64,000 bases of DNA. Origin: Flavobacteriales bacterium (GTDB taxonomy: Bacteria; Bacteroidota; Bacteroidia; CAIKAF01). The stretch is from the NCBI GenBank assembly GCA_025055575.1, contig JANWWP010000066.1, forward strand, positions 4,332 to 68,331, in the 5' to 3' direction. Shown one piece after another: positions 2,917 to 43,324 of the stretch. The position numbers and the translations under genes were made by a program. Within the stretch, counting starts at the first letter, position 1. Each line of letters begins with the position of its first letter. A model generated the notes under the pieces. It ran no database searches, was not told the origin of the DNA, and saw only the letters and a list, made by a program, of their open reading frames with translations.

Positions 2917-3879
2917 ATGGCTGTTTTAAGAAATAAAATCCTAATTCTTTGTTATGGTATTGCCTTGGCAGGAGGCTGGCGTTGCTCGCCCCAAATCATA
3001 CGCCGCGCTCATGTTGCTCATTCAAACAATCCATGTCATTTGACGGCCTACACCATGCCTTCAGAAGGTTTTTTGTGGAACGAAGAAATCCCCTCAAAAA
3101 CCGACGAGAAACTAAATGCACATTTGAGCCTACAAGCCTTAAAGGTGGCCGAGCTCATCGGTATTACTCCTATTTTAGCCCGGCTGTTGGCTTCCGAAAA
3201 TCCAAATCTTTCCTCTCAGGAAACGGTACAACTGACTCAAATAGTTACTCAACGTCTTTTGTGGGCCTCGATGGAAGTGTCTGCCATGGCAGGAGAAATT
3301 GATTGTGAAGAAGAAAAAGCTGATCAGGTGGCAGTGTATTTAGACAATATCATTCAAAACCGACAAAAAAAATTAACAGCTGGGGCTATTATTATAGGCG
3401 CTGTTGGCGCCATAGCCAGCGGCAGCTTACTGGCCCTAGAAAATGGCGGAGATGCTCCAGAATTAATTGGAATTTTTACTGGACTATTTGAGACCACGTT
3501 AGGAGGGTTAATTCTTCTTGATAAACCAAAAATTTTTTTCAGCCATCCACGCAATGCCTTACGCGATATATGGAATGCTCCCACTGCGCCCGAAGCCATC
3601 TCGCCTCTTGTTTGGAGGTTTTTAAACTCCACCTTTTCTCCAGAGGATGGAAAAACCTTACGAATGATCCTTGTAGAACGCTGGTCTGGCTATGGTCAAT
3701 TGGAAAAGACGGCTTCCAAAAAAGGCTCTGGCACCGATTTTCTGTATTTTGGCGACGGTGGTTTTTACACAGCCGACGCACTTCAGAACCGGGCTAATAT
3801 GCTGGACCAGTTAGAGTCCTACATTAACCTGATGAAACAAAGTCTTGCCGAGCTGGCTTCTGCCCTGAATAGAAAATAA
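2917..3879 (+). CDS. Hypothetical protein (320 aa) with one central hydrophobic/Gly-rich helix (GAIIIGAVGAIASGSLLAL). No recognisable family.
   Basis: Long ORF downstream of the HlyD-TolC pair on the same strand. No motif I can assign. Confidence 0.4.
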   Translation: MAVLRNKILILCYGIALAGGWRCSPQIIRRAHVAHSNNPCHLTAYTMPSEGFLWNEEIPSKTDEKLNAHLSLQALKVAELIGITPILARLLASENPNLSSQETVQLTQIVTQRLLWASMEVSAMAGEIDCEEEKADQVAVYLDNIIQNRQKKLTAGAIIIGAVGAIASGSLLALENGGDAPELIGIFTGLFETTLGGLILLDKPKIFFSHPRNALRDIWNAPTAPEAISPLVWRFLNSTFSPEDGKTLRMILVERWSGYGQLEKTASKKGSGTDFLYFGDGGFYTADALQNRANMLDQLESYINLMKQSLAELASALNRK

Positions 3880-3971
3880 AACCACATGGAGTGTGGACCA
3901 ACTTGAATCATACTTAAGGATTTGAAATTAGTGCCCTCCAGGCCTAACTCTGCTCTACCTTTGAAACCAGA

Positions 3972-5615
3972 ATGAATAACAAAATTTTTAGTAAACTTTT
4001 TAATGGGATAGTGGTAGGCATCCTGATTCTCTATGCGGTAGAAGTCAGGGCCCAATGGTTAAGCAAAAGCGCTGAAAAACGACTTCAGAGGCATGTGGCC
4101 TTTCTGGCTTCCGATAAACTCGAAGGCCGGGAACCAGGAACCGACGGCATCGAGAAAGCCGCCCGCTACATTGCCTCAGAATTCAAAAAAGCTGGACTGA
4201 AGCCGGCTGGCGATTCCCTCTGGTTTCAGTATTTTGAATTGCCAGTTAATCCCTCGGATTATAAGGTGAACGTCCATCTGAACGGTAAAGTCTGGGCAGA
4301 TTTTAAGGGGTTTGCCCTTCCCTATTCTGCCTCGGGAGAATTTACTGGTGCCGTGTATTATATGGCTCAGCCCGACACCGTGGCGCGGGTCAGTCTTGGA
4401 GGTATGGCTCTGGCCGTGGAATTGAAGCCCTTGGCCACCCACCAGGCCCACCATAGGCATCCGGATTACCTGGATATGGTGCGTTGGGCCGAAAGAAAAG
4501 GGGCCAAGGCCTTGATTTTTGTGGATAACCATGGCATCCAGCCGGGCTTCAGCGAATTCAAAACCACCGATAAGTTTTTCCGGACCTCGCTTTTGTGTCT
4601 CTTTGCCGGGCCTGGGCTTTCGAAGGCGCTGTCCGATGGTGGGGGACAACTGCACCTCACAGTCCGTCGGCCGAATCCAGTGCGCTCGGCCAATGTAATC
4701 GGATTCTGGGACAATAAAGCGCCCACCACGGTAGTGATTGGGGCCCATTACGACCATTTGGGCCGCAACCACCCCGGATCGCGCAGCGAAGTGCCGGGGC
4801 AAATTCACAATGGCGCAGACGACAACGCCTCCGGAACAGCCGGCCTTTTCGCGCTTGCCCGGGTGCTCCGCCGACCTGAATTTAAAGGCAATAATTATTT
4901 GTTTATTGCTTTCACGGCGGAGGAAAGCGGCCTGCTCGGCAGCGCCTGGTTTGTGCGGTCGCCTTTGTTTTCGAAATACACTTTCAACTACATGCTCAAC
5001 ATGGATATGATAGGCCGGCTTCATCAGCAGTTGGCCATCAGCGGTGTGGGCACATCGCCGGTGTGGGGCAACAATATCAACACTCTGCGCACGGAAGGTT
5101 TTACTGTGAAAACCAGCGCTTCCGGGGTAGGACCTTCAGACCATACTTCTTTTTACTACAAAAACATCCCGGTGTTGCATTTTTTCACTGGCTTGCATGA
5201 AGATTACCATAAACCTTCAGATGATGCGGACAAAATCAACTATGCCGGAATGCGCCAGGTGCTGAACCTTATGCTGGATCTCGTGGCCACTCTGAATAAT
5301 CAGGGGCGCTTGCCCTTCGAAAAAACCCGCGATCAGGAAGATACGCCAACGCCACGCTTCAAAGTAACCTTAGGTATTATGCCGGATTATTTGTACGACG
5401 GTAAAGGCATACGGGTAGAAGGGGTGGTTCCCGGTAAGCCAGCCGATAAGGCTGGACTTCGCGGAGGGGATATTATTCTTGCCATTGGTGCACATGAAAC
5501 TCCAGACATGACAACTTACATGAAGGCTTTGGCATCGTTTGAAAAAGGCGATACCACACCGGTGAGAGTGCTACGCAACGGCGCAGAACAAGTGATGGAA
5601 GTGGAATTTAAATGA
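3972..5615 (+). CDS. M28-family zinc aminopeptidase with a C-terminal PDZ domain, secreted
   Basis: Signal peptide. M28 metal-ligand motifs HYDHLGR, GADDNASGTAGL and FTAEESGLLGS. C-terminal PDZ-like segment GIRVEGVVPGKPADKAGLRGGDIILAIG. Confidence 0.78.
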   Translation: MNNKIFSKLFNGIVVGILILYAVEVRAQWLSKSAEKRLQRHVAFLASDKLEGREPGTDGIEKAARYIASEFKKAGLKPAGDSLWFQYFELPVNPSDYKVNVHLNGKVWADFKGFALPYSASGEFTGAVYYMAQPDTVARVSLGGMALAVELKPLATHQAHHRHPDYLDMVRWAERKGAKALIFVDNHGIQPGFSEFKTTDKFFRTSLLCLFAGPGLSKALSDGGGQLHLTVRRPNPVRSANVIGFWDNKAPTTVVIGAHYDHLGRNHPGSRSEVPGQIHNGADDNASGTAGLFALARVLRRPEFKGNNYLFIAFTAEESGLLGSAWFVRSPLFSKYTFNYMLNMDMIGRLHQQLAISGVGTSPVWGNNINTLRTEGFTVKTSASGVGPSDHTSFYYKNIPVLHFFTGLHEDYHKPSDDADKINYAGMRQVLNLMLDLVATLNNQGRLPFEKTRDQEDTPTPRFKVTLGIMPDYLYDGKGIRVEGVVPGKPADKAGLRGGDIILAIGAHETPDMTTYMKALASFEKGDTTPVRVLRNGAEQVMEVEFK

Positions 5616-6319
5616 CCTTTCCTACACCTCTTTCAGGACCCCGTGCCATTTTGTTCGATATGGACGGGGTCATCGTGGATTCTGAACCCCTCTGGCGCAA
5701 GGCCGAGATCGAGGTTTTCAGTCGTTTTGGTATTTTCCTCACGGATGAAGCGTGCCGGAGCACCCAAGGTCTGCGCTTGGACGAAGTGGTGCGCCTGAGG
5801 ATGCCCCTGCATCCCCCTGCAGAACAGCGGCAGGCGAGGCGGTCTATCATGCGCAGGGTGGCTGAGCTGGTGGAGCGCGAGCCTGTTGACCCGGGTCTGA
5901 TCGAATTTATGAACTTAACAGAAAGTTTAAAAATCCAAAGGGCTTTGTGCACATCCTCTCCGCCCCGGCTCATTCATGCCGTTCTGAAACACACGGGCTG
6001 TGCGTTCCATAAGGTGGTAAGCGCCTGGACCATGAAACGACCCAAACCCCATCCAGCCTGTTATATCCTGTGTTTGCAGAAACTGGGATTAAAAGCTGAA
6101 GAATGTTGGTGTATCGAGGATTCGTTCCGCGGGATGGTCAGCGCCCTAGCAGCCGGCCTACCCGTATGGATCAAGGCGGAAAACACATTAGACCACCAAC
6201 CCTGGCATGGGGCAGCTGTGGGCGTTTTTTTCGATTGGAAAGAGCTTGCACATCGCCTGTTGGCGGCGTTTAATCCAAATACAAGGTCTGCGAACAATCG
6301 GCACACATTCCCCGCATAA
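5612..6319 (+). CDS. HAD-superfamily hydrolase (subfamily IA, phosphatase / beta-phosphoglucomutase-like)
   Basis: Motif I ILFDMDGVIVDSEPLW near the N-terminus. ATGA start/stop overlap with the upstream M28 gene. Confidence 0.7.
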   Translation: MTFPTPLSGPRAILFDMDGVIVDSEPLWRKAEIEVFSRFGIFLTDEACRSTQGLRLDEVVRLRMPLHPPAEQRQARRSIMRRVAELVEREPVDPGLIEFMNLTESLKIQRALCTSSPPRLIHAVLKHTGCAFHKVVSAWTMKRPKPHPACYILCLQKLGLKAEECWCIEDSFRGMVSALAAGLPVWIKAENTLDHQPWHGAAVGVFFDWKELAHRLLAAFNPNTRSANNRHTFPA

Positions 6320-6728
6320 ACAAGTTGGCGTGCCGGACATTAAAGCCTGCAGGAAGTTGCGGACGCGGCATAGGCACTTCTTCCAAGCACAAAGTCCGGG
6401 CACATTTTTCACATTGAAAATGCACATGGTTATCCTTCGACTTCGAATGTTCCTCATAAGGTGCATGGTCATGCCGGCATACGGCAAATCGGACGGTCCC
6501 CTCAGCATCCACCACTCTGTGCACCAGTCCGCTCTCTTCAAAACCCGTGAGGGTTCGATAAAAGGTCACGCGGTCCACATGTTCGGACAAGGCGCTTAAA
6601 ATCTGATGTTGGGTGAGCGCGCCTGCGGCACGGCAAAGGACTTCCAAAATTTTCTGGCGGATGACCGTGGCACGAAGGCCGTGAGAGGCCAATATTTTTT
6701 TCGCCTCCGGCGGCATTTTATTTACCAT
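6270..6728 (-). CDS. Fur-family metalloregulator (Fur/Zur/PerR type)
   Basis: N-terminal winged-helix region (HGLRATVIRQKILEVL). C-terminal His/Cys-rich metal sites (HDHAPYEEH..., HVHFQCEKC...CxxC). Confidence 0.75.
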   Translation of the reverse strand: MVNKMPPEAKKILASHGLRATVIRQKILEVLCRAAGALTQHQILSALSEHVDRVTFYRTLTGFEESGLVHRVVDAEGTVRFAVCRHDHAPYEEHSKSKDNHVHFQCEKCARTLCLEEVPMPRPQLPAGFNVRHANLFMRGMCADCSQTLYLD

Positions 6729-7389
6729 CCAATGAGTGGCTCAAGGCAAAAATAATACAACCAGAAATTACCATCAGCCAGAAAGTAAGGGTTGTTTGAC
6801 CCGACCGACGACGGGCCTGAAGCGCCGCCCGGATGTGGAGGAGGCCGCTCAAAGCCAGTCCCAAGGCCACAAAGTTTTCAAGCCAATACAAACCGCTCTG
6901 GGGGATGTGCACACACAATCCCCCAAGCAGAACTGCCACAACTGTGAGGAAGGCGAGATGAAAAGCTTTGGCAGAAGTGCATCCAAGGCGCCTGAAAAGA
7001 CTTACCAAGGCGGCTTTGTGCAACCACTCATGCAAGCCGAAAATCAGGGATGCTGTGGGAAAGCCTCCACGCGACATATCCAAGGTCAACGCCATCACCG
7101 TTCCTAATAATGTATGCAACCCGTTCAGACTAAACAGAGCCCACACCTGGCCAGATTTTTCCCACCTCCAGCCTCTTTGAAACTCAACAGGCACAAAAAG
7201 CGCTAAGGCCAAAGCCGGCACCACGGACCAGGCGGAGGAAAGCGCCCACTCCGAAAGATGCCCAAATCCAAGCCCCACAAAGCCCCCGGCCAAAAAAGCA
7301 CTGACCAGCCCATCCAAGCGACGGGTCCTAAGGGACATTAATACACCCGCCAAGGAAAACACTGTGATTAAAAGCACGCCAACCCCCAT
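6718..7389 (-). CDS. Polytopic membrane protein, possibly a ZIP-family metal cation transporter. Co-transcribed with the Fur-family gene, with an 11-nt overlap.
   Basis: About 7 predicted TM helices, His/Glu-containing helices (GFGHLSEWAL, GLHEWLHKAAL), and its position directly upstream of the Fur-family gene. The family assignment is weak. Confidence 0.35.
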   Translation of the reverse strand: MGVGVLLITVFSLAGVLMSLRTRRLDGLVSAFLAGGFVGLGFGHLSEWALSSAWSVVPALALALFVPVEFQRGWRWEKSGQVWALFSLNGLHTLLGTVMALTLDMSRGGFPTASLIFGLHEWLHKAALVSLFRRLGCTSAKAFHLAFLTVVAVLLGGLCVHIPQSGLYWLENFVALGLALSGLLHIRAALQARRRSGQTTLTFWLMVISGCIIFALSHSLDGK

Positions 7390-7409
7390 ACAGGGGCAAA
7401 AATAAAATC

Positions 7410-7426
7410 TTGCAACAATGTTGCAA
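7410..7426. promoter_or_regulatory. Perfect inverted repeat TTGCAAC-aat-GTTGCAA. Candidate operator for the downstream Fur-family operon. Alternatively an intrinsic-terminator hairpin for the upstream M50 protease gene.
   Basis: Read directly from the sequence. A 7-bp arm and 3-nt spacer lie in the 41-nt gap between the stop of the M50 gene (7431) and the start of the membrane-protein/Fur operon (7389). A T-rich run follows on the minus strand. Confidence 0.35.
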
Positions 7427-7430
7427 AATT

Positions 7431-8522
7431 TTATGAAGCCGATGGCTTCAGCAAAAGAGCTTCTAAAATATTTTCCGTGTTGATAACACCCACCAGCTTT
7501 TGATTGTCCATCACCGGGGCAATAGACAATCCTTCGCTTTGCAGAATGCGAAAGGCTTCGTTGAGATCGGATTCCGGACTGAAAAAGACCGGCTTAGGGC
7601 AGTCACAGGCCGCGAGGGGGGTGCCCCGATCATGCTGCGCTAAGGCCTTTACCAAAAGATCGCGTGTGATGATGCTTTGAGGCATACCGCCGTCATCCAC
7701 CACCACAAATTCTTTTTCCTGGCCTTTTAAAATGATATCCACCACATCTTGTAAAGTGTGCTGCGGATTCAAGAGTGTAAACCGCGTCATCATAGCATCG
7801 GCCACACGACGGTTGACCAAAATGTGGCTCTGCTGTACCATTTGGAATTCCTGGGCCGCTCCGAAAAAGATGAAAAGACCTATAAAAATGAGAAATGGAT
7901 TGGTCTTGAAACCCCAAAAAATAAATAAGATAGCCATGGCCTGTCCCACCCACATGGCAAGGCGCGTGGCCTGCACACGGGGAATCAGGCTTGCCAGCAC
8001 CGCCCGCAGCACCCGGCCGCCATCCATCGGGAACGCAGGAAGCAAATTAAACAGGGCCAGAAAAACATTGACAAATGCTAAGTTGAGCAGAAAATTATGG
8101 CTATTGACAGCAAGCGCTATCTCCTCCAAATAATATACCTCGGGCGACAACGCCAGCCCCAGAAGCACCAAACCTGCGATCAGGACATTTACGGCAGGTC
8201 CTGCCAAAGCCACCACAAGCTCTTGAACGGGCTTTTCCGGCATGCGCTCCAGCATGGCTACGCCTCCGATTGGATAGAGTGTGATACTCTTAGTGCGGAT
8301 ACCGTAACGCAAAGCAGCCAAAGCGTGTCCCAGCTCATGAAGCGTCACGCAAAAAAATAATGCTAAAATGAAAAGTACAGCCCACATCACTTGGCTAGGA
8401 TCCTGGCTTAGTTTATAATTCACATAGGCCACATAACCGATAATTAATAAGAAGCTCCAGTGCACCCGAATTGGAATGCCCTTTACACTCATGATTTCTA
8501 AGCTAGAAGATGAGAGTTTCAT
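7431..8522 (-). CDS. M50 site-2-protease-family zinc metalloprotease with a C-terminal CBS-domain pair
   Basis: HELGHALAA (HExxH) in a TM helix, multiple TM segments, and a C-terminal tandem CBS region. Confidence 0.75.
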   Translation of the reverse strand: MKLSSSSLEIMSVKGIPIRVHWSFLLIIGYVAYVNYKLSQDPSQVMWAVLFILALFFCVTLHELGHALAALRYGIRTKSITLYPIGGVAMLERMPEKPVQELVVALAGPAVNVLIAGLVLLGLALSPEVYYLEEIALAVNSHNFLLNLAFVNVFLALFNLLPAFPMDGGRVLRAVLASLIPRVQATRLAMWVGQAMAILFIFWGFKTNPFLIFIGLFIFFGAAQEFQMVQQSHILVNRRVADAMMTRFTLLNPQHTLQDVVDIILKGQEKEFVVVDDGGMPQSIITRDLLVKALAQHDRGTPLAACDCPKPVFFSPESDLNEAFRILQSEGLSIAPVMDNQKLVGVINTENILEALLLKPSAS

Positions 8523-8555
8523 ACATTTTAAATCTTCAAAGGTATTATTAATTTG

Positions 8556-9587
8556 CTATACCGCCAGACGCAGCGTCAGTTCCGTCATGAGCACTTCCTC
8601 ATCGGCGCGGGCACCGACGCCTTTGGCTTTTAGGTCGTATTCCAATAAAAGGGCCAAAATCCGGCTGACATCTTCAAAACTGTGATGGTTAAGGGCTTCC
8701 ATATAATCCTGACGGGCGTAAAAATTCAGATTCATGGTTTGTGCCGCCTGTTCCGGCGTGAGTTTTTCGCGTCGGATATAATACATGAAGAGCAGGAGAT
8801 TGGAATAAAAACCAAATATCTGGTTCACATTGCGCAAGAGCGGATTATCACGGGTATTACGGGCCATATTGAGGCCAATACGAAGAATTTGCGTTTTGTT
8901 TTTTCGGGCTAAAGCTTTGTACAATTCAAAAATGTTATACTGGCGGCTAAAACTGACCTTCTCAATCACTTCCTCCCGGTTCACTTCAGCGCCAGGTCCT
9001 ACGGCGATGGCCAGTTTTCGGATTTCGTTGTCCAAACGCACCAGATCAGCCCCCACCAATTCCATCAGCGCCTGGATGGCCTCCGGGGTCAGCCTCACGC
9101 CGGCGTCAGACGCCAAGGAAGCAATGACCGACGGCAAATTTTGCTCACGGGGCTTTTCGCTCTGAAAAAACCGGATCCGTGGGGCATTCATGACATTTTT
9201 CCACACGCTTCTCCGCTTATCGGGCTTACCCTTGTAAGTCATTACAAATACAGTGGAAGGCGTAGGATTTTGAAAAAACGACGTCATGAATTCCATAAAA
9301 TCGCTGCTCTCTCTCTCTTTTTCTGCATCCTGGGCTTCTTTGAGCAGAACGAGCCGCCGAGGTCCCTGCAGGGGAAAACTCCGGCAGTCTGCCAGGAGAC
9401 TTTGCTTCACCAGGCCTTTGCCATAATGCTTTGAAAAATCAAAGGCCTTGGCTTCTTCAGGCAGCACTTGCTCTTCAAACGCATCGCAGAGTTTATCAAT
9501 ATACCAGGGTTCTTCCCCGGTCAGGATATACACCGGCTCCAGCTTTCCGGAGCGGATTTCAGCCATTATTTCCTCAAAGCGGGCCAT
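8556..9587 (-). CDS. holA: DNA polymerase III delta subunit
   Basis: N-terminus MARFEEIMAEIRSGKLEPVYILTGEEPWYIDKL is typical of HolA. About 340 aa. Confidence 0.75.
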   Translation of the reverse strand: MARFEEIMAEIRSGKLEPVYILTGEEPWYIDKLCDAFEEQVLPEEAKAFDFSKHYGKGLVKQSLLADCRSFPLQGPRRLVLLKEAQDAEKERESSDFMEFMTSFFQNPTPSTVFVMTYKGKPDKRRSVWKNVMNAPRIRFFQSEKPREQNLPSVIASLASDAGVRLTPEAIQALMELVGADLVRLDNEIRKLAIAVGPGAEVNREEVIEKVSFSRQYNIFELYKALARKNKTQILRIGLNMARNTRDNPLLRNVNQIFGFYSNLLLFMYYIRREKLTPEQAAQTMNLNFYARQDYMEALNHHSFEDVSRILALLLEYDLKAKGVGARADEEVLMTELTLRLAV

Positions 9588-31459: not shown

Positions 31460-31842
31460 GACTTTAGAGGCGTGATTAGATTTCGGCCCCTAAAGTACGT
31501 CCAGAATAAAAAATTGTTCGGAAGAAAATTTTGATTTATTGAAATAGAAACTTTTAAATAAACTTTCCCTGATTTTAGAAGACTTTCTGATATTGGGTTG
31601 AGTCATTAGGATTTAAACCCAAGCCGCCTTGTGAACAATTAAATTTTCATTGAATAATTTATAAAAACTTATATATTTGAATCGCTAAAATTATTGTTTT
31701 TTTATTGAATTCCATAAAATCTAAACCCAAATATTAGGCTAAAACTGTCTTTGGAACCGCGGGTGAGAAAATCATGTTATTGCCAGTTAAACAAGCAGAA
31801 TTAAAAATAAATATAATACGGCAAAAGAATCACCAATACTTA

Positions 31843-32325
31843 CTAAGGAGCATCCATAAATTCTGCTTCGATGGAAGATTCGCCGCACTTATTGGTACCT
31901 TTCATTCCGATATTATCTGGACGATCATTAAACCGGCCAATCTTTAAAAAGAAATTATTGCGACACCAGGAAAAGTTGGACGGTAAATAATCGCTGGAGC
32001 GCACACCATTATCGGAAAATTCAATTCGGTTATCGCTGGGGTAAACATTCCCTTTGACATTAGTAGTACGACGATAATCCCTGGAATCCAATCTAAAAGT
32101 TTCTTCTAAAATACCTGTAAATGAGTTGTCATCATAGACCTTCACCCCGTATAACTTATACTGAAGGTAACCATACCCTCCTTCTAAAATACTTGCAGAA
32201 AATCTGCCGCCCCCATACCAAGTGCGTTCCAAAACTTCTTTCACGCTTTGGGCATGAACTACTAAAAGGTCAATAGAAAAACAGATGATGAAAACAAAAA
32301 AATTAATCAAATATTTTTTTATCAT
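31843..32325 (-). CDS. Hypothetical small secreted protein (160 aa), low GC
   Basis: Signal peptide MIKKYLINFFVFIICFSIDLLVVHA. Lies directly downstream of the large tail-fibre-like gene. AT-rich codon usage, unlike its neighbours. Confidence 0.4.
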   Translation of the reverse strand: MIKKYLINFFVFIICFSIDLLVVHAQSVKEVLERTWYGGGRFSASILEGGYGYLQYKLYGVKVYDDNSFTGILEETFRLDSRDYRRTTNVKGNVYPSDNRIEFSDNGVRSSDYLPSNFSWCRNNFFLKIGRFNDRPDNIGMKGTNKCGESSIEAEFMDAP

Positions 32326-32370
32326 TTTACAAAGATGCCAAAAATCTTTTATAAAAATTCAAAATATGGG

Positions 32371-35300
32371 TTACTCATGAGCGGATACGTTACCGGAAGC
32401 ATTAAAGATCCAAGACCTAAGCTGGCTGTTTTCTTGTTTTAATTGCTTTAATTCTTGCTCTAACTGAAGGACCAATTTTTCGAGATATTCCTGTTTTTGA
32501 GCTGCCTTTTGGCTTCTCTCGTTCAAGGCTTGAATGCCTAAAAGAGCCACCCCGGCCACATCAGAAGCCGCCAGAGAATGAGAGGCTCCCGGTGCGTTTT
32601 GAACCCCTGTATGAAAGGCAGAGAAGAAATCTTCGGCATAGGGCCCGATGTGATATTCATCAGATTCTTTATAAAACCAACCTTCCACTTTTAGTTGGGA
32701 TATTTTTTGAAGCACTTCGTCCGGAACCAAGGCCGTGAATCTGTCTTTTTTGCCGCGCGTGGAAACGTTTGTCCAGACTCCGCCAGCTGAAAGATAGGCG
32801 CCATTTCCATTGCTGCTGTTCGTACCCACATGGATGGGGTGGTCCCCATCGAAACGATTGACCACCAAAAAGCCGGATGGGCTGCCTGATCCGCTTCCAA
32901 AAAAGTACACGCGATGGGTTTCAGTAACAGTGGGGGAAACGTTTTGTCCAAAAACAAGATTGAAAGAAGCATTTGCCGTATTACCAATTCCGCCCAGAAC
33001 CGTGCTGTAACCACCTGATACTACGTTATCCTGCCCTCCAATAACAGAGCCATAAGAAGCGGAGCTATAGATGGCGTTATTTGTGCCACCGGCTATGGTA
33101 CCACCAGAGGCTAAAACCGAATTATTGTCACCGCCTCCCACTGTGGCATAATCATTGTCAATCTGGTTATTAGACCCACCTGAAATGGTGCCTGTGGTCC
33201 ACCCCTCATTAATGACATTATTGTATCCACCCGAAATTACGTGGTAATAGTCCGTCCCTCCGCTGCCTCCAATTTGATTGAACGCACCGCCGCCGATACA
33301 TGAATAATATCCGTTCACGGAATTATTTGCTCCCCCTGCAACCACTGAACCTTCATAATTTACGAAATTGGCGTTACCCCCGCCTATGAAACCATAATCT
33401 GATCCAACAAGATTACCCTGGCCCCCTGAAACCGCACCATACTGCGAAATCACTTGGTTATCGGAGCCACCCCCAATAAATCCATAAGGCCCTCCGGAAT
33501 TGATGCTGTTATTAATGCCTCCAAATAGGGCAGAACCATATGAATTGGCGTCATTAGAATAGCCACCCCCGATGGAGGCGAACTGTCCAGCTACAGTGTT
33601 TGTAGACCCTCCCAACAATGCGCTTGAGTTTCCAGTAGCACTATTTAATATGCCTCCAGCAATCACCGAGTAAGTGCCGCTGGCAGAATTATTTGCCCCC
33701 CCGCCGATGGATGAAGTATTCCCTGTGGCAAAGTTGGAAGATCCCCCAGCCACCGTGGCCGTTGTGTTGGAAGCCTGATTTTGAAATCCTCCTGCCACCA
33801 CGGAAGCCCCTCCCGTAGCCTGATTCTGGTATCCACCTCCCACTGCGCTGTATATGGCGGCACTCGAATTGCCTTGACCTCCTCCAATGAAGCTGTTGTC
33901 GCCTGAACTGGTGTTGTTAAGGCCTCCGGCCACCACCGCGTCGGCTCCACTGGCCGTGTTGCGCCGGCCACCAGAAATGACCGCGTGATTCCCGGATGCC
34001 ACTTGTGTGGCTGACATTCGATCTATTTGCCAATCCACTGCCCTAAGACCCCGTGGATTCCCACCGAGGTCCCTTTGGATGCTCCAGGCCGGAGCAGAAA
34101 ATCCCGGAGGATTCAAAATCAGTGAATTTTGGTTTTGGACACGCAACTGGAGGGGTTGATTGTCCAGCGTTCCCACAAATGCCGCCGTGCCAGATTGAAG
34201 ACCAATATTACCATTCACGACGAGGCGTTCACTGGGACTTGTGGTATTTATACCCACATTCCCCCCGCTTGTCACACGGAGTCTTTCACTATTATTGGTT
34301 CTGACAACCAGCGGATTGGCATCCGTGGTTCCCAGAAAATTCGTGGTAGGATCGGTTCCACCATTCCCATTCAGCAGCCAACCACTTCCACCGCCTCCCA
34401 GAACCGAAGGGTCTAACCAGGACAAATTGCCACTGCCATCCGTCTGAAGAATTCCAGCGGAAGGCGTAGTTACCGGAGACAATGTAGAAGGCCAAGTGTA
34501 GGTGATGTTTGAAGTTTGACTTTGGGCCCTGAAAGCTGTGTACTCAGCGCTGCCGCTGGCATTGGAGGTGGGTTCATAAAAACGCAATTCCCGGGCTGTG
34601 TTGTCTCGGTTGTAGAGCCAAAGATTAACGTCTACGAAGGCTGCAATATTAGAGAATGAACTTAAGTTGGTGGAAGTTGGAGTAATCTGTCCACTATAGC
34701 CAAAACTATAACTTCCAAGAGTGAGCCTTTGTCCTCCAGCGATAGCACTGTATGCTCCTGAAGCAGAATTGTGCGCGCCACCGCATACAACACTGGTGTT
34801 TCCAGAAGTCTGATTGTTGCTGCCTCCCCCTATAAAACTGTGGTTGCCAGGGGCCTGGTTACCGCCTCCCCCAGAAATTGTGGAAGCATATCCATTGGCC
34901 ACATTCACGCCCCCACCTCCTACTGTTGCATATTCACTACTGGCAACATTGGACCTACCGCCGGCAACCGTGGTGTAGTAATGCGAACTTTTATTGTATA
35001 TGCCCCCGCCGATGACACTCGCATATCCGCTAGCCACTTCGTCCAGGTTCGCTCTGGCACTTTGCAAATCCACAGCATGCTCCCCTCTTGTGTTTCCCGT
35101 ACCGCGTTGAATACTCCAGTTGCCTGGTGAAGTACCGGGTACATTCATTCGAAACACCTCGGTGTTGTTGGCGCGGAATACAATTGGTTGATTATCAGTA
35201 GTTCCTATAAAATTTGTGGCCGGATTCGTACCGCTGTTACCCGTTAGGTTCCAAAAGTTGCTATTAGTCCACACAGGAGTGCCCGCTCCACCTATCGTCA

Positions 35301-36153
35301 GAATTTGATTTGCCGTACCTGGAGCCAACCAGGTGGGGGGCAGGGAAGCGCCTGAAGAAAGGAGCAAACTACCGTTTAATCCGGCAGAGTTGTTAGGCAT
35401 GAAAGCATTATCAAGGCGAAGATTTCCGCTCACATGAAGACGCTCTGTCGGAGTGGAGGTACCCACCCCAACGTTACCTGAGGCTGAAATCCTTAAACGT
35501 TCGTTACTATTGGTTGAAAAAGCCAACTCATTGGCAGCGGCCCTGTACATACCCATGCTGGTCGTAGAGTTAAATCGAAAGGCAGGGACAGAAGCCGTCC
35601 CGTCGTTGGCAATAAATCCACTCTCGGCCCGCACCCCCCCAGCCACATGCAACTTATGACTGGGGGATCCGGTGACTCCAATCCCCACAGAACCCGAGCC
35701 TGTAAACCGAAAATCAAAACCAGCCTGGGCAATATCTGTGTTTTGAAGAAGCGTACCGCCCAGCTGAATATGGCTACCCGTCATTGTGAGCCCATTGTCG
35801 GCCGTCACGTTGGCTACACCATTTTGAAGCCGAGTCCATTGAGTGCCATTCCAATAATAAAATCCAGGCGTCACATTCGTCGGAGGAGTGCCCGCCGTGG
35901 CGGTATTGTAAACCAAAAGGCCTGTAGCGCAACAGCTCACCACGGTTGTGTTGTCCAAAGTTCCTGTGAGAGCAAGCCTTGGAACCAACACACCACGATT
36001 CCCCGCCTTGATATCTAACTGAGCGCTGGCATCCGGAGAGGATCCGTCCGTATTTATACCCACATTTTGACCCAAGAGGCCAAAGGGCAAAGTTATCAAC
36101 AAACCACTGTAAAAAATTTTATTCAAAGTGTAGTTATTATTTTTTATTTTCAT
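32371..36153 (-). CDS. Surface fibre protein with phage-tail-fibre-like architecture: signal peptide, long Gly-rich YadA-head / Hep_Hag-like repeats, C-terminal peptidase-S74 intramolecular-chaperone domain and coiled coil
   Basis: Repeats of the form NxASGxYSxIgGGxxNxAsGxxSxVaGG across aa ~370-1000. C-terminus STRGKKDRF...IGPYAEDF...SDVAGVALLGIQALNERSQ...LEQELKQLKQENSQL matches the S74 auto-cleaving chaperone domain of phage endosialidase / L-shaped tail fibres. Confidence 0.65.
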   Translation of the reverse strand: MKIKNNNYTLNKIFYSGLLITLPFGLLGQNVGINTDGSSPDASAQLDIKAGNRGVLVPRLALTGTLDNTTVVSCCATGLLVYNTATAGTPPTNVTPGFYYWNGTQWTRLQNGVANVTADNGLTMTGSHIQLGGTLLQNTDIAQAGFDFRFTGSGSVGIGVTGSPSHKLHVAGGVRAESGFIANDGTASVPAFRFNSTTSMGMYRAAANELAFSTNSNERLRISASGNVGVGTSTPTERLHVSGNLRLDNAFMPNNSAGLNGSLLLSSGASLPPTWLAPGTANQILTIGGAGTPVWTNSNFWNLTGNSGTNPATNFIGTTDNQPIVFRANNTEVFRMNVPGTSPGNWSIQRGTGNTRGEHAVDLQSARANLDEVASGYASVIGGGIYNKSSHYYTTVAGGRSNVASSEYATVGGGGVNVANGYASTISGGGGNQAPGNHSFIGGGSNNQTSGNTSVVCGGAHNSASGAYSAIAGGQRLTLGSYSFGYSGQITPTSTNLSSFSNIAAFVDVNLWLYNRDNTARELRFYEPTSNASGSAEYTAFRAQSQTSNITYTWPSTLSPVTTPSAGILQTDGSGNLSWLDPSVLGGGGSGWLLNGNGGTDPTTNFLGTTDANPLVVRTNNSERLRVTSGGNVGINTTSPSERLVVNGNIGLQSGTAAFVGTLDNQPLQLRVQNQNSLILNPPGFSAPAWSIQRDLGGNPRGLRAVDWQIDRMSATQVASGNHAVISGGRRNTASGADAVVAGGLNNTSSGDNSFIGGGQGNSSAAIYSAVGGGYQNQATGGASVVAGGFQNQASNTTATVAGGSSNFATGNTSSIGGGANNSASGTYSVIAGGILNSATGNSSALLGGSTNTVAGQFASIGGGYSNDANSYGSALFGGINNSINSGGPYGFIGGGSDNQVISQYGAVSGGQGNLVGSDYGFIGGGNANFVNYEGSVVAGGANNSVNGYYSCIGGGAFNQIGGSGGTDYYHVISGGYNNVINEGWTTGTISGGSNNQIDNDYATVGGGDNNSVLASGGTIAGGTNNAIYSSASYGSVIGGQDNVVSGGYSTVLGGIGNTANASFNLVFGQNVSPTVTETHRVYFFGSGSGSPSGFLVVNRFDGDHPIHVGTNSSNGNGAYLSAGGVWTNVSTRGKKDRFTALVPDEVLQKISQLKVEGWFYKESDEYHIGPYAEDFFSAFHTGVQNAPGASHSLAASDVAGVALLGIQALNERSQKAAQKQEYLEKLVLQLEQELKQLKQENSQLRSWIFNASGNVSAHE

Positions 36154-36358
36154 GTATTAATTGTTTTGGTTTAATGTTCACAAATTTAATAAATTAAATA
36201 CCCAGAAGTATTCATTTTGTTTTTTTTAACTATGTAATAATGCCAAAAGATCAAACTTTAGCATTTGTTTATTTTTTTCAAACAATAGTTATGTTTATAT
36301 TGTAACAAAAAATTTGAATAAAAACTTGATTTTAAATAATTTATTATTTATTTGAAAA

Positions 36359-36373
36359 TTATTTTGCCATCCC
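36359..36373 (+). promoter_or_regulatory. TTATTTTGCCATCCC motif (Bacteroidetes -7-like TAnnTTTG variant) about 70 nt upstream of the hotdog/GT2 operon
   Basis: The identical 15-mer recurs 13 nt upstream of panB at 43627..43641. Confidence 0.3.
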
Positions 36374-36442
36374 CTATCGTATTTCCACCCGAGTTATACC
36401 CCGAGAATAATTAATTATTTACTTTAGCCACGTAGATCCACG

Positions 36443-36850
36443 ATGAGTTTTAATTTAGTTACGTATATTAAGGAAACTGAAACTTTGTTCCAAATTAAGG
36501 CTGAAAGAAACTTGCATGGCACATCGTGGCAATGGGAAGTGCATGTGTCCAGCAGCCATCCCATTCTGGCCGCTCATTTCCCCGGACTGCCTGTAGTGCC
36601 GGGCATCATGCAACTGCATCTGGTGCGCCGGGCTGCAGAACATGTATTAAAAAAATCTCTGGCTTGGGAAGGTCTTCAGAAAGCCAAGTTTTTTAATCCC
36701 TGGACGCCGTCCCAAGCCCCAGTTGCCTTGCTCATGCTTTCCATCCAGGAAGGGCCGGACAAAACCACCGGACGCTGGCGCGTGGATGCCCGGATTGCCC
36801 ACGGGGAAATGGCCATTTTGCAGGTAAAAGGACAACTGCGCGCATGCTAG
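36443..36850 (+). CDS. FabZ/FabA-like hotdog-fold (3R)-hydroxyacyl-ACP dehydratase-family protein
   Basis: HFPGLPVVPGIMQLHL matches the FabZ active-site region HFPGxPVxPGVL. Confidence 0.6.
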   Translation: MSFNLVTYIKETETLFQIKAERNLHGTSWQWEVHVSSSHPILAAHFPGLPVVPGIMQLHLVRRAAEHVLKKSLAWEGLQKAKFFNPWTPSQAPVALLMLSIQEGPDKTTGRWRVDARIAHGEMAILQVKGQLRAC

Positions 36851-38070
36851 TCCCTGAGGAAAAAGCTGAAATCATTCGGCTAAGCCGGCAATTCCGGGTG
36901 TGTTGCGTGGTACCGTTTTTCAACAACCGACAGCATGTCACTCAAGTTCTAAAGCAGCTCCTGGCTCTGGGCTTTCCGGTGATTGCTGTGAGCGATGGCA
37001 GCACCGATGGTTCTGCAGAGGAAGTTCAGCCATTGAATCTTCGCGCCTTTCTGAAATATTCCCCCAACCGCGGAAAAGGCTATGCCTTGCGCCTGGCCTT
37101 CCAGAAATCTCTGGAACTTGGCTACGCATATGCCATCACGGTGGATGCGGACGGGCAGCATGTCCCTTCCGAAGCGCTGGCGCTTCTGAAAGCGCTGGAG
37201 GCCCACCCGGGTGCCCTGGTGGTGGGAGCGCGCCGCATGGAAGGAAAGGAGCAGTCCCAAGCCGCCGGATTTGCCAATCGCTTTTCCAACTTCTGGTTTG
37301 GCGTGCATGCCCTCCAAAGGCTTTCCGATACCCAAAGCGGCTTCAGGCTGTATCCGCTGAGAGCTGTGACAGGCTTGCGCCTGATGGGCCGACGTTATGA
37401 ATTTGAAGTGGAAGTCCTTGTGAAAGCGGCCTGGCGGGGCATTAAAATTGTGGAAACCCCGGTAGATGTCTGCTACCCGCCCCGGTCCGAACGGGTGAGT
37501 TTTTTCAGGCCCGGCTGGGATTTTTTCCGTATTTCCCTCATGAATACCTACCTCACGTTGGGGGCCCTGCTTTACGGACACTGGGTCATTCTGGCCCGGA
37601 GGTTGTCTTGGAAAAGTCTGACCAGCTTCCTGCGCCGTCATGTTTTCAGCCGCGAGGAACCTGTGTGGAAAAAAGCCGCCAGCATTGGCCTGGGGGTGTG
37701 CATGGGCATCGTGCCTGTGTGGGGTTGGCAAATGCTGTCGGCCGGTATTTTAGCCCACATGCTGAAATTAAATAAAGGTTTGGCCGTTATCAGCTCCAAC
37801 ATCTCCATGCCGCCCATGTTACCTTTTATTATTTGGGGAAGTGTGGAAACCGGCGCCCTTTTCTTTCCTCCAGAACGGCGGTTCAAACCTCGTTGGGAAT
37901 ACCTGCAAGCCGATCCCTGGCAAGCCTTAGGAGCGGGAGGTATGCAATATGTCCTGGGCGCTGTGGCACTGGGTATCCTGGCCGGTCTTGCGGCTTTTGT
38001 TATTTCTTTGCCCCTACTTCATTTAGTCCGCCAGAAGAATTGGAAGAAACAAGTCCCGCCCTCCGCCTAA
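36844..38070 (+). CDS. GT2 polyprenyl-phosphate glycosyltransferase (GtrB/ArnC/DPM1-like) fused to a C-terminal DUF2062-like membrane domain
   Basis: VVPFFNN...SDGSTDGS, NRGKGYAL, ITVDADGQH and DTQSGFRLYP motifs. C-terminal TM helices. 7-nt overlap with the hotdog gene. Confidence 0.7.
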   Translation: MLVPEEKAEIIRLSRQFRVCCVVPFFNNRQHVTQVLKQLLALGFPVIAVSDGSTDGSAEEVQPLNLRAFLKYSPNRGKGYALRLAFQKSLELGYAYAITVDADGQHVPSEALALLKALEAHPGALVVGARRMEGKEQSQAAGFANRFSNFWFGVHALQRLSDTQSGFRLYPLRAVTGLRLMGRRYEFEVEVLVKAAWRGIKIVETPVDVCYPPRSERVSFFRPGWDFFRISLMNTYLTLGALLYGHWVILARRLSWKSLTSFLRRHVFSREEPVWKKAASIGLGVCMGIVPVWGWQMLSAGILAHMLKLNKGLAVISSNISMPPMLPFIIWGSVETGALFFPPERRFKPRWEYLQADPWQALGAGGMQYVLGAVALGILAGLAAFVISLPLLHLVRQKNWKKQVPPSA

Positions 38071-40654: not shown

Positions 40655-43324
40655 TCATCTTTGAATGACAAATCTCTGTCTGGCCGCTCCTTTATCATAT
40701 ACATATTCCAACCAATACACGCCCGGGGCAAAGTGTTCGCAAGGCAGAACGAGAGAAGTTGTGCCCGCTGGCAGGATCATCCGATGCACGCGGCGGCCCT
40801 GAGCATCTGTCAAATGTAAAGCAGCCGACTGCGAACTTTCCGGTAAGTCCCGTATCATCACATGAAGTGTGGCTGGATTGGGATACATTAAAAAGCCCGG
40901 GGCATAGGACGGTGCATCCAGTGCAACGGAGGACTGGGCATATACGGTGGTGGCTGTGTTGGTGCGGATAGGCAGATTGTAGTCAAAATAGATATCGGCA
41001 AAGTTGCCCACCACTTCATTTAAGGACCAGGTGGGCACGTGTTGGATCCGAAATTTAACAAATCCGCAGGAACCGATGGGGTCACTGGCGCTGTCGGGCA
41101 GCATGATGTTGTCAAAGCGGAACTCGAGGATGTGGCCGTCCCGAAAAGTCCAATCCATCGGCTGGTGGCTGGAACTGATGATTTGAATGGTTTGGGGAAG
41201 CAGGAGAGACGATAAGGTGTCGCGCAGGAGCACAGTGTGAGCCGGCGCATTACCTACATTTTGGAAATGAATGGTATATGTGAGAAACGAAGGCGGATTC
41301 ACGGACCACAAAGTGTCTTTGTCCACTTCCTTATAGTTGGGATCGTAAGGGCCCACCACAGTAAGATTGGCCACCGAAACATTATCGGCCGGCTGATTGT
41401 CATTGGCTTGCGGATACACCTGAGCTGTGGCCGCGACAGGCGCTCCGAGCGGCGCGGAAACCGGCACCTGAAACTGCACCACCATCACCGCCGAAGCGAG
41501 TGGATTGAGGGTTCCAAGATTCCAAGTCAGCGTGTTGGCATTAAAGTAATCGAAAGGGGGCGCCGCCGTCAGAAAATTGACGAGCGGTGAAAATTCCAAA
41601 GACACAGAGGCATTCTGAGCTACGGTGCCCACATTCTGGCACGTGATCAAATAGGCCAGAACATAGCCTGGCTTTGGCAAAGTGAGGGCGGTCAGGTCCA
41701 CCCGGAGATCGTGCACGTTGCCTTGAGGCATGAGGGGAAAATCATGGCCCGACGAAATGGCTCCCAAAGCGGGAAAAGCAACCGTGTAATTAGAAGGCCC
41801 TGTGGGTGTATAGTATTGAGGCACTGTGGCCAGCGCCACACTGTGAGAACCTTGGGGAACAGGTAGATCATAAAAGCCGTTGGACCCCGAATGCGTGATG
41901 AACGCGGGATTATTATTAGCCCACACAACCACCTGGGGCAGAGCCATTTCCGTACTATCCCAAAGACCATTGCCATTGAGATCAGAATAAATCTTACCCT
42001 GAATCCTGTTGCCTTCCGGATGAATTTTAGCCACAAGCCCGACACTCACTGTGGCTGAAAGCCCCCCCAGGGTCGTATGGCCATAGGCCACGGTGCCCAC
42101 ATACAAGGCGTCCGAGGACATCGCCAGGGATTGCATCAGATGGTTGTTGGAAGCGCCGTCGGTCTGAATGACCCAGTCCGGGCTTCCGTCTGGATTGAGG
42201 CGGGCTACAAAATTTCGGTATGTTCCATTGGCGGAGAGCAGATGCGTGCCCCAAGGAAAGGAAACATTAAAATTGCCCACAACAAATACGTCCCCATTGG
42301 GTGCGCAGCGCAACTCCTTGCCTTCCTCATTGCCCGGTCCGCCCACATTATAAACCCACTCGTAGGCGCCACCGGCATTGATTTTGCCCAGCAAAATATC
42401 ATCCCCTCCAAGTCCGGTTAGCTGAATTGTATCAAATTGGGCCTGGGTATCAAAGTTTCCTGTAAAATAGAGGTTGCCTTGTGCATCGGCACTTGCGCCT
42501 ACCACTTCGCCGCTAAAAGAGGATAAGGCGCTCCACTGAAACTGTCCGGCGCCATTGAACTTGGCTATAAAATGATTATGGCCCTGCATGCTCTGGCTGC
42601 TGCCTGCATAGGAAACCGTGGCCGATGTGCTGAAACCGCAGACATACACATTGTCCCAGGCATCGCTGGCCAGGGTCCACATGGATTCAATGCCCGGCCC
42701 CCCAATAGAGGCTCCCCATAATAAAGTGCCGTTATTATCCAGCTTAATGAGAAACACCTCATAGCTTGGACCCGACATGTTAAAACTGCCATACGAAAAG
42801 TTCCCCACAAAAATTCCGGAGACATAGATCTCTCCAGCCGGATTGATCTCCAGGCCCAAACCTGAATCATTACCAGCACCACCGGCGCGGGCGGCGTACA
42901 AAACGGCGCCGCTGGCCGCGTCTAATTTTACGATAAACACATCGTTGCTGCCCAGGGAAGTGAGAGTATAGGAACCGATGGTTAAGGTTCCCTGGAAAAT
43001 ACCTAAAACCCATACGTGCCCATTATGGTCATACTCAATATCATAGACGTAATCACCTCCGGTGCCGCCCCAATTCTGAACCCATAATACCTGGCCGGCC
43101 GGGTTGCGTTTGACCACGGCCACATCTTGCTGCCCTAAAGAATTGAGGGTTTGGCCTCCAATGTTGGCCGTACCCACAAACTGTCCTGCAGCAAAGGAAT
43201 TATTCAGTATATCAGTGCACAAACGCCCGGGCGCCAAATCATCCGTCTGAAGCCATTCCGAAACCTGACCATAAGCGCATCCGAAGAGAAGATAAGAAAA
43301 AGCAAAAAAAAGATTTTTGTACAT
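40655..43324 (-). CDS. Secreted beta-propeller (SBBP-repeat) protein with a T9SS type-A C-terminal sorting domain
   Basis: Repeated YxxGxxxGxDxGxxIxxDxxGNVYVxGxF units. C-terminus ...FAPGVYWLEYVYDKGAARQRFVIQR is typical of Por_Secre_tail. Confidence 0.65.
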   Translation of the reverse strand: MYKNLFFAFSYLLFGCAYGQVSEWLQTDDLAPGRLCTDILNNSFAAGQFVGTANIGGQTLNSLGQQDVAVVKRNPAGQVLWVQNWGGTGGDYVYDIEYDHNGHVWVLGIFQGTLTIGSYTLTSLGSNDVFIVKLDAASGAVLYAARAGGAGNDSGLGLEINPAGEIYVSGIFVGNFSYGSFNMSGPSYEVFLIKLDNNGTLLWGASIGGPGIESMWTLASDAWDNVYVCGFSTSATVSYAGSSQSMQGHNHFIAKFNGAGQFQWSALSSFSGEVVGASADAQGNLYFTGNFDTQAQFDTIQLTGLGGDDILLGKINAGGAYEWVYNVGGPGNEEGKELRCAPNGDVFVVGNFNVSFPWGTHLLSANGTYRNFVARLNPDGSPDWVIQTDGASNNHLMQSLAMSSDALYVGTVAYGHTTLGGLSATVSVGLVAKIHPEGNRIQGKIYSDLNGNGLWDSTEMALPQVVVWANNNPAFITHSGSNGFYDLPVPQGSHSVALATVPQYYTPTGPSNYTVAFPALGAISSGHDFPLMPQGNVHDLRVDLTALTLPKPGYVLAYLITCQNVGTVAQNASVSLEFSPLVNFLTAAPPFDYFNANTLTWNLGTLNPLASAVMVVQFQVPVSAPLGAPVAATAQVYPQANDNQPADNVSVANLTVVGPYDPNYKEVDKDTLWSVNPPSFLTYTIHFQNVGNAPAHTVLLRDTLSSLLLPQTIQIISSSHQPMDWTFRDGHILEFRFDNIMLPDSASDPIGSCGFVKFRIQHVPTWSLNEVVGNFADIYFDYNLPIRTNTATTVYAQSSVALDAPSYAPGFLMYPNPATLHVMIRDLPESSQSAALHLTDAQGRRVHRMILPAGTTSLVLPCEHFAPGVYWLEYVYDKGAARQRFVIQR

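Follow-up and report, generated by a model that had tools for sequence, protein, structure and literature searches.

The gene and its locus

The window analysed here is a stretch of 64,000 nucleotides from the metagenome-assembled genome (MAG) of a Flavobacteriales bacterium (assembly GCA_025055575.1, contig JANWWP010000066.1, positions 4,332 to 68,331 of the forward strand). Its minus strand carries an intact open reading frame (ORF) of 1260 aa with an ATG start (32371-36153), which has been deposited as 'hypothetical protein NZM15_09255' (MCS6980274.1). An earlier note, made from the sequence, had described the product as a cell-surface fibre in which YadA-like head repeats are combined with a phage-type S74 chaperone domain, and had found the setting of the gene consistent with horizontal acquisition or phase-variable control. 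Our results uphold the chimera, through the homology of the repeats to the UspA1 head and through a family profile, a fold search and a conserved dyad at the C-terminus, while nothing was found in favour of the proposals on origin and control.

The fibre gene is a stable, functional resident of the chromosome. In a related genome (locus L001) the same gene neighbourhood surrounds a 93%-identical orthologue, P0089, and the non-coding flanks are also conserved, with 86% identity upstream and 91% downstream. Between the two orthologues dN/dS is 0.22, ranging by module from a minimum of 0.08 in the N-terminal domain (N-domain) to a maximum of 0.59 in the first beta-roll block, and three intact orthologues of the gene are found. 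Its GC content (0.500) is that of the window (0.494) and of the neighbouring genes (0.502±0.035). Stable residence is concluded from this combination of conserved synteny and flanks, native composition and purifying selection. The AT-rich flanks pointed out by the earlier note do exist (36154-36442, 23.5% GC; 31460-32370, 33.5% GC), the remaining intergenic regions of the window being equally AT-rich, and neither invertible-promoter-type repeats nor slippage tracts were found at the fibre gene. As the composition is native, the AT-rich flanks are conserved and inversion or slippage repeats are absent, horizontal acquisition and phase variation are both unsupported.

Modular architecture of the protein

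The protein begins with a putative signal peptide, as had been stated. The leader starts with a basic n-region, turns hydrophobic over residues 13-28 (mean Kyte-Doolittle 1.75) and is followed by Gln29, just before a conserved (N/Q)VGI motif. A Gln stands at the same position in 59 of 60 homologues, behind leaders of 18-27 aa. From the hydrophobic leader and this conserved +1 Gln, we infer that signal peptidase I would cleave at G28-Q29, in agreement with the 'Q-rule' for the sites of this peptidase in Bacteroidetes (PMC5837995).

The mature chain would then start with a beta-rich domain that is assigned by homology to the Pfam family PF26696, 'PTL_trimer', a family carried by orthologue P0089 and by every N-domain homologue listed. 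This domain, presumed to be the base or anchor of the fibre, has no relative in the PDB, and nothing on PTL_trimer was found in the searchable literature. It is followed by stalk segments whose sequence leads to solved fibres of Bdellovibrio bacteriovorus: residues 149-293 match Bd2133 (8ond, E=1.5e-7) and Bd3182 (8ojn, E=2.7e-4) when compared with PDB sequences by phmmer, and stalk module B gives a weak match to Bd2133 as a second phmmer domain. A capping-loop motif is present in three copies, two of which were located by motif scan in stalk 1 (VGIGVTGSPSHKL at 156-168 and VGVGTSTPTERL at 228-239). When the best 120 relatives and the query are scanned as one set of 121 proteins, stalk module A is present in 102 of them, and the connector module lies directly before the variable tip in many relatives.

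Gly/Ser/Asn-rich repeats are found as announced by the earlier note, although they form two blocks (residues 366-480 and 716-1070) totalling ~470 aa and ~30 repeats instead of ~600 aa, and their period is 15 residues, with autocorrelation peaks at lags 15 and 30, rather than 14. The UspA1 head is recognised in both blocks in a consistent repeat register (phmmer against PDB sequences; 3pr7, E=3.2e-19; 3ntn, E=1.5e-6), and local alignment against 300 composition-preserving shuffles gives z=18.5 for block A and 15.6 for block B. Because this homology goes far beyond composition in both blocks, the reading as a YadA-like head is upheld: on sequence grounds the repeats can be assigned to the UspA1-type GGG beta-roll, and the term is right at that level. 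The Pfam families Hep_Hag and YadA_head do not match the window protein, and UspA1_rep reaches 14 bits only. The beta-roll also gives an irrelevant match to LbR_Ice_bind; an ice-binding or antifreeze reading, suggested by weak PF21300 matches, was rejected, the similarity being one of repeat type only.

At the C-terminus, the last 166 residues have 88 homologues. In an alignment of 56 sequences (55 homologues and the query segment), 50 match the Pfam family PF13884, Peptidase_S74, the best with E=3.7e-13. AlphaFold2 models the 166-aa segment with a pLDDT of 89.3 as an alpha/beta core followed by a 64-residue helix (residues 102-165 of the segment), and a Foldseek search of the PDB with this model returns nine top matches that are all ICA domains (MyRF 7dc3, phage GA-1 3gud and endoNF 3gw6), with a probability of 1.0 and a TM-score of 0.5-0.6 for MyRF. 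The sequence and the model together point to a divergent but genuine S74/ICA module. Cleavage at the predicted V1130-S1131 bond would release it as a chaperone of 130 residues, and residues 1071-1130 are predicted to form the distal end of the mature fibre. The coordinates of all modules are collected in Table 1.

Table 1. Modules of the fibre protein and features next to its gene, with positions in the window
Feature	Positions	Strand	Basis or remark
Promoter-like -7 motif of Bacteroidota type, TAAATTTG	36181..36188	-	28 nt upstream of the ATG; well placed, a suggestion only
Signal peptide, residues 1-28 (MKIKNNNYTLNKIFYSGLLITLPFGLLG then Q29)	36070..36153	-	Hydrophobic h-region, conserved +1 Gln
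N-terminal beta-rich domain, residues 29-115	35809..36069	-	Pfam PF26696 'PTL_trimer', by homology
Beta-helix stalk 1, residues 116-295	35269..35808	-	phmmer matches to Bdellovibrio MAT fibres
Stalk module A, residues 296-365 (WNLTGNSGTNPATNFIGTTDNQPIVFRANN...)	35059..35268	-	Internal duplicate of residues 586-715
GGG beta-roll block A, residues 366-480	34714..35058	-	~7 repeats of 15; UspA1 head 3pr7 at residues 372-465, domain E=2.2e-13
Connector module, residues 481-585 (…FVDVNLWLYNRDNTARELRFYEP…)	34399..34713	-	Common to 82/121 proteins scanned, query included
Stalk module B, residues 586-715	34009..34398	-	Third capping-loop motif, VGINTTSPSERL, at 633-644
GGG beta-roll block B, residues 716-1070	32944..34008	-	~23 repeats of 15; UspA1 head 3pr7 and 3ntn at residues 746-880
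Pre-cleavage tip, residues 1071-1130 (…PIHVGTNSSNGNGAYLSAGGVWTNV)	32764..32943	-	Motif VG..NGNGAYL..GG.WTN nearly invariant in the family
S74/ICA chaperone alpha/beta core, residues 1131-1195	32569..32763	-	PF13884 matches of the family, dyad, Foldseek
Predicted nucleophile Ser1131	32761-32763		Predicted scissile bond V1130-S1131
Predicted general base Lys1136	32746-32748		
Long C-terminal helix/coiled coil of the chaperone, residues 1196-1260	32374..32568	-	AlphaFold2 helix, pLDDT 95-98
160-aa ORF downstream of the fibre gene	31843..32325	-	Hydrophobic N-terminus, GC 0.38; doubtful gene

A large family that probably shares the design of Bdellovibrio fibres

The closest described system is that of the MAT (mosaic adhesive trimer) fibres of Bdellovibrio bacteriovorus, a set of 21 chromosomal proteins of ~1000 aa (Caulton et al., 2024; PMC10769870). 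In each of them a signal peptide and a conserved beta-rich N-domain precede a beta-helix shaft that is trimeric, and their C-termini are either S74 domains, shown to self-cleave (13 proteins), or swapped adhesive tips (8 proteins); structures are available as PDB 8ojn, 8onb, 8onc and 8ond, their N-domain is without PDB relative and the anchoring mechanism of these fibres is left unexplained (PMC10769870). The supplement of that paper contains nothing on relatives outside Bdellovibrio.

The window protein resembles the S74 subgroup of the MATs (e.g., Bd3182) in being chromosomal, in having a signal peptide and in ending with a C-terminal S74 chaperone/protease. It belongs to the same size class of ~1000 aa, its beta-helix stalk with capping-loop motifs is directly homologous in sequence, and a conserved beta-rich N-domain, comparable in its description, follows the signal peptide. 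In both systems the route of export across, and anchoring to, the outer membrane is unexplained. Conversely, the host of the window protein is a Flavobacteriales MAG for which a predatory lifestyle is not evidenced, 37% of the protein consists of UspA1-type 15-residue beta-roll, which has not been described for MATs, and its predicted cleavage motif reads STRGKK instead of SDxxxK.

As chromosomal fibres ending in S74 are thus known in Bdellovibrio (PMC10769870), and as at least 1358 relatives of the full protein are found at E<=1e-10 among 8000 candidates scored, the novelty implied by the earlier note was overstated. The relatives come mostly from MAGs of Bacteroidota, Kapaibacteria and Ignavibacteria, plus one labelled Bdellovibrionaceae, and those that bear a name are called 'tail fiber domain-containing' or 'beta strand repeat-containing' protein. 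Within the set of 121, the stalk and beta-roll modules are present in more than 100 proteins, the N-domain in 38 and the S74 module, always C-terminal, in 33; N-domain and S74 module occur together in 11. All four (N-domain, stalk, beta-roll and S74 module) are combined in P0103, the protein from the Bdellovibrionaceae-labelled MAG. The remaining members of the set carry several unrelated beta-rich tips on the same stalk, and BclA_C, DUF1566/Lcl_C or YadA_head are also found in relatives of the N-domain. The swapping of C-terminal tips, TNF/BclA-like and lectin-like domains included, is therefore family-wide as it is among the MATs, and it is by this mosaic behaviour that the MATs are defined.

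The N-domain reaches further still. At E<=0.001, 47,899 representative clusters are matched by a profile made from the N-domain and the stalk next to it, a count that is inflated by the repeated stalk motif. Species-representative genomes contain at least 593 loci, of which the best 80 are almost all from Bacteroidota; the best N-domain identity in that genome scan is 68%. PTL_trimer genes often lie in tandem arrays of up to 7 per 12 kb, with several loci per genome (L002-L081), as in Aureispira sp. Cli_1 (three loci) or at two loci with 7 N-domain ORFs each, the protein lengths ranging from 85 to 1413 aa. Such arrays give the impression of a repertoire that has diversified, much as Bdellovibrio has its 21 MATs. 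Two further observations concern the arrangement of modules. In P0338 (1432 aa) 10 stretches match the N-domain/stalk profile, and other proteins match it far from their N-terminus, so that either the N-domain module is not strictly N-terminal or the stalk motif of the profile is highly repeated in such proteins. In the C-terminal 260 aa of P0110 (1387 aa), the S74 module is not terminal and is followed by a stalk module (…LTGNAITGTEFLGTTNAQPLVIRTDNTERMRI…) and a beta-rich tip; two fibre pieces would result if this module cleaves.

Proposed assembly and self-processing

We consider, with a probability of about 0.65, that the window protein is a chromosomal, Sec-exported, homotrimeric and self-cleaving fibre of the same design as the Bdellovibrio MAT fibres. 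The proposal rests on the domain homologies, the conserved dyad, the purifying selection and the non-phage chromosomal setting observed here. Trimerisation, self-cleavage, surface display and adhesion, which we infer, could proceed as follows. After Sec export and removal of the signal peptide at G28-Q29, the C-terminal S74/ICA module would bring three chains into register, the long coiled coil first, and would thereby nucleate the folding of the beta-structure upstream of it into a trimer, in the direction from C- to N-terminus. In the folded shaft, MAT-type beta-helix stalk segments would alternate with the two left-handed beta-roll blocks of UspA1 type. When the trimer has formed correctly, the Ser1131/Lys1136 dyad would cut V1130-S1131 and free the chaperone (S1131-E1260), leaving a mature fibre of ~1100 residues (Q29-V1130) with its conserved tip (…NGNGAYLSAGGVWTNV) exposed distally. 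The strongly conserved PTL_trimer N-domain would hold this fibre to a partner in the cell envelope, and its likely role would be adhesion or the recognition of a surface ligand.

The processing step is modelled on ICA domains of known mechanism. In T5 pb1, Lys1269 activates Ser1264 and the Thr1263-Ser1264 bond is cut (PMC4690869). In MyRF, S587/K592 is the catalytic dyad, equivalent to S911/K916 of endoNF, the cleavage occurs at P586-S587, and the aromatics Y615 and Y617 are located at the cleavage centre (PMC8326128). A trimeric coiled coil belongs to both ICA domains (PMC4690869, PMC8326128). Like the phage domains, the module of the window protein is C-terminal, has ~130 residues (134 in T5), combines an alpha/beta core with a predicted trimeric coiled coil, presents a Ser-x4-Lys dyad with a predicted cut just before the Ser, and shows the same fold by Foldseek ranking. 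It differs from them in being carried by a secreted protein of the cell instead of a virion protein, and in the divergence of its sequence. MyRF, a eukaryotic membrane-bound transcription factor, is another domesticated copy of the phage module and the best structural match; the Ser/Lys dyad and the two nearby aromatics align between the two proteins, S1131/K1136 with MyRF 587/592 and W1159/Y1161 with MyRF Y615/Y617 in the trimmed profile.

Several points weigh against this reading. (i) Scored with PF13884, the full protein reaches 17.2 bits and the isolated segment 20.7, below the gathering cutoff of 22 bits, and in scans of the whole protein with Pfam, NCBIfam and PHROG, every match is sub-threshold or irrelevant (S74 at 17 bits, with LysB and bZIP matched by the coiled coil). 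The curated models by which the earlier note had proposed to check, or else to refute, the S74 domain and the Hep_Hag repeats thus do not recover them in this copy, and both calls are rescued by the family profile, the fold search, the dyad and the homology to UspA1. (ii) The Foldseek E-values are weak (0.014-1.9), even though the ranking is clean. In profile searches of the PDB, the untrimmed C-terminal alignment is swamped by coiled-coil proteins and the trimmed one leaves MyRF only, with E=0.14. Given this weak link from sequence to PDB, the case for S74 rests on the Pfam matches of the homologues, the fold ranking and the conserved dyad. (iii) The motif is S-T-R-G-K-K in place of the canonical S-D-x-x-x-K, and in the 56 subfamily members the residue after the nucleophile varies (S in 37, D in 11, T in 4); for both reasons, the catalytic competence of the module would not be guaranteed. 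(iv) An outer-membrane export signal is absent, as detailed below. (v) No ligand or phenotype was found in the literature for any member of the Bacteroidota family.

The third of these points leads to an alternative in which the S74-like module is a trimerisation and folding device without proteolytic activity, its coiled coil staying in place as the distal end of the fibre. Besides the Thr that replaces the Asp after the nucleophile, the part of the Pfam S74 profile that holds the SDxxxK motif (its first six positions) is left unaligned to the window copy, and trimerisation of MyRF is driven mainly by the coiled coil (PMC8326128). Nevertheless, Lys1136 is invariant and Ser1131 at least 90% conserved across the subfamily, in canonical S-x4-K spacing; the aromatic pair W1159/Y1161 is conserved to the same extent (at least 90%); and the SS and ST variants grade into canonical SDxxxK members within one alignment. 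A loss of cleavage thus appears improbable to us, without being negligible.

Possible routes across the outer membrane

The earlier note had rightly observed that neither an autotransporter barrel nor a type IX secretion system (T9SS) C-terminal sorting domain (CTD) is present: YadA_anchor, Por_Secre_tail, TIGR04183 and CHU_C give no match at E<=1 in the window protein with Pfam and NCBIfam. There is no lipobox in the window protein either, and no remnant of a T9SS CTD downstream of the gene. The remark of the earlier note that the export route is unexplained stands and, because no outer-membrane export signal is present, the surface display included in the self-cleaving fibre proposal is an assumption.

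One possibility is an indirect dependence on the T9SS, in which the N-domain docks on a separate T9SS cargo, or in which the protein is a derivative that has lost its CTD and is retained in the periplasm. Three observations give it some weight. First, in two relatives of residues 1095-1260 the S74 module and coiled coil are followed by a sorting domain of T9SS type A: P0063 (272 aa) scores 26.9 bits with TIGR04183 (cutoff 23), 26.7 with PF18962 (cutoff 27) and 41 with S74, and P0030 (243 aa) scores 31.4 bits with PF18962 (cutoff 27) and 22.8 with TIGR04183 (cutoff 23). Self-cleavage by S74 would part such fibres from their own secretion and anchoring signal, an arrangement of which we know of no description. 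The tails of P0092, P0095, P0104 and P0106 were also considered as T9SS CTDs and are not claimed as such, their Pfam and NCBIfam matches being at E ~0.1 only.

Second, the PTL_trimer fibre genes of other Bacteroidota have a recurrent neighbour, found as a whole cluster in 34 of 80 genome loci. The core family of this neighbour, at ~15 loci, is a T9SS cargo protein gene 5-70 nt from the fibre gene on the same strand (L010, L014 at 7417-8688, L015 at 4639-5877, L017, L032, L037 with two copies at 3283-5921, L039, L043, L048, L056, L057, L058, L069, L073 and L075). Its product, of ~413-440 aa (or ~1170 aa), has a signal peptide, reads '…ARLVFNN…' at the N-terminus and 'VDRFW' further inside, and carries a Por_Secre_tail that scores 34.1 bits in L014; no Pfam family is recognised in its N-terminal part. 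This neighbour could be a partner or anchor of the fibres. Third, the organism of the window itself has T9SS cargo genes.

However, the window protein has neither a CTD nor a downstream remnant of one, the partner family was not found in the 64-kb window, and a loss of function is unlikely given the low dN/dS and the three intact orthologues. For the window protein, an indirect T9SS route is consequently regarded as an unlikely explanation, to which the relatives nonetheless lend some substance.

Relation to phage fibres and to trimeric autotransporters

A third alternative is that the gene encodes a tail fibre of a phage or prophage, or a tailocin fibre, or is a recent remnant of one. Relatives of its S74 module, of the capping-loop stalk segments and of the beginning of the beta-roll are all found in phage tail fibres, and the N-domain model bears a weak resemblance to proteins of uncultured phages. 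The pieces shared with deposited phage genomes are nevertheless short, covering at most 9% of the query (capping-loop segments and beta-roll onset, in cyanophage tail fibres; the tail fibre of cyanophage Cy-LDV1 matches residues 696-804 with E=1e-9), and the whole protein is without close viral relative. In IMG/VR, 140 relatives of the S74 module are found at 29-44% identity, whereas chromosomal relatives reach 73%, and the N-domain and stalk modules are absent from all of the best 80 of these 140 viral genes. The locus has a syntenic counterpart in the related genome and is native in composition, and the protein carries a Sec signal peptide, which virion proteins do not need. Finally, the search over 20 kb on either side, suggested by the earlier note, was negative: among the 20 other ORFs tested, between 11.3 and 54.9 kb, there is no phage, tail or contractile-injection gene, and the locus is not an ordinary prophage. 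As the viral relatives are distant and lack the N-domain and stalk modules, the window gene is not a phage gene, although its modules are of phage-fibre type; the phage or tailocin reading is largely refuted and we hold it to be very unlikely.

One phage region does encode a protein with both GGG repeats and S74 (L098, IMGVR_UViG_3300010355_001866), which speaks for a phage connection. In this high-GC region, with portal and large and small terminase genes within 1-7 kb, the ORF at 5433-8447 (+) encodes 1005 aa in which GGG beta-roll repeats occur together with an S74 module of canonical SDRNAK sequence and a coiled coil. The N-terminus of this protein resembles a signal peptide (MKALARILVCLMITASTGQTQ), an oddity in a virion protein.

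The similarity to trimeric autotransporters concerns the head only. As in the UspA1 head of Moraxella catarrhalis (3pr7, 3ntn) and in YadA-like heads, the repeats are of the GGG type with 15 residues, and a left-handed parallel beta-roll within a trimer is expected for the window protein. Unlike UspA1, it has no C-terminal membrane-anchor barrel, and the Pfam models of such heads do not detect it. Its polarity would also be opposite to that of trimeric autotransporters, the N-terminus being presumed proximal and the C-terminus distal. A beta-barrel anchor is the defining translocator of the type Vc family. In spite of ~470 aa strongly homologous to the UspA1 head, secretion of the protein as a type Vc adhesin is therefore refuted and retains practically no probability, since the anchor domain is absent and an S74 module with coiled coil stands at the C-terminus in its place.

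Neighbouring genes and flanking features

The 20 ORFs tested around the fibre gene are housekeeping genes or have no family match. They include genes for nucleotide-sugar and polysaccharide enzymes, PBP1, an S13 carboxypeptidase, CtaA, an M16 peptidase, PanB, a P-type ATPase, a GT2 glycosyltransferase, a DUF5686 protein and two T9SS cargo proteins. Divergently from the fibre gene lie an ApeI-like dehydratase-fold ORF (36443-36850, +) and a GT2-DUF2062 glycosyltransferase gene (36844-38070, +), followed by the gene of the DUF5686 outer-membrane-type protein; this gene order is kept in L001. Further away, a T9SS cargo gene (40655-43324, -) encodes 889 aa with DUF5122, DUF11, DUF7619 and Por_Secre_tail. 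Its counterpart in L001 (2785-5499) consists of several short called genes, two of which carry pieces of DUF7619 and Por_Secre_tail, and it appears to be degraded or rearranged there.

The small ORF that the earlier note had seen downstream of the fibre gene exists. It is annotated as hypothetical and is identical in two MAGs (MCS6980273.1, MCX7650627.1), and it has no match in Pfam, NCBIfam or PHROG. Its counterpart in L001 (13833-14312) is split by frameshifts despite 91% nucleotide identity, so that it may be a decaying or spurious gene. Concerning expression, the Bacteroidota -7 motif, one copy of which is placed upstream of the fibre gene, is not enriched in the window (36 found, 42 expected), and a scan for sigma-70 promoters and terminators gave nothing useful, this model not being applicable to Bacteroidota.

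Significance for the family

The window gene adds no new principle, as the design was published for Bdellovibrio in 2024. What is new in our analysis is the assignment of the N-domain to PF26696 and the homology of the stalk to Bdellovibrio MAT fibres, both derived from sequence comparison.

The PTL_trimer N-domain could define a widespread, CTD-independent way of mounting phage-like trimeric fibres on the surface of Bacteroidota. This idea is speculative and, as it stands, improbable. If it is true, docking onto an adjacent T9SS-secreted partner would be one possible mechanism, the window protein would be one cartridge of a swappable repertoire comparable to the receptor-binding proteins of phages, and the S74 module would act as a quality-control step before display.

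On the question of how such fibres cross the outer membrane, the Bacteroidota offer leads of their own, namely the T9SS CTD placed after the chaperone in some relatives and the recurrent T9SS-cargo neighbour. The reading of the window protein as a MAT-like, S74-processed fibre would give a 'hypothetical' protein a testable mechanism, and would extend the fibre design of Bdellovibrio to a very large, uncharacterised family in the Bacteroidota and neighbouring phyla.

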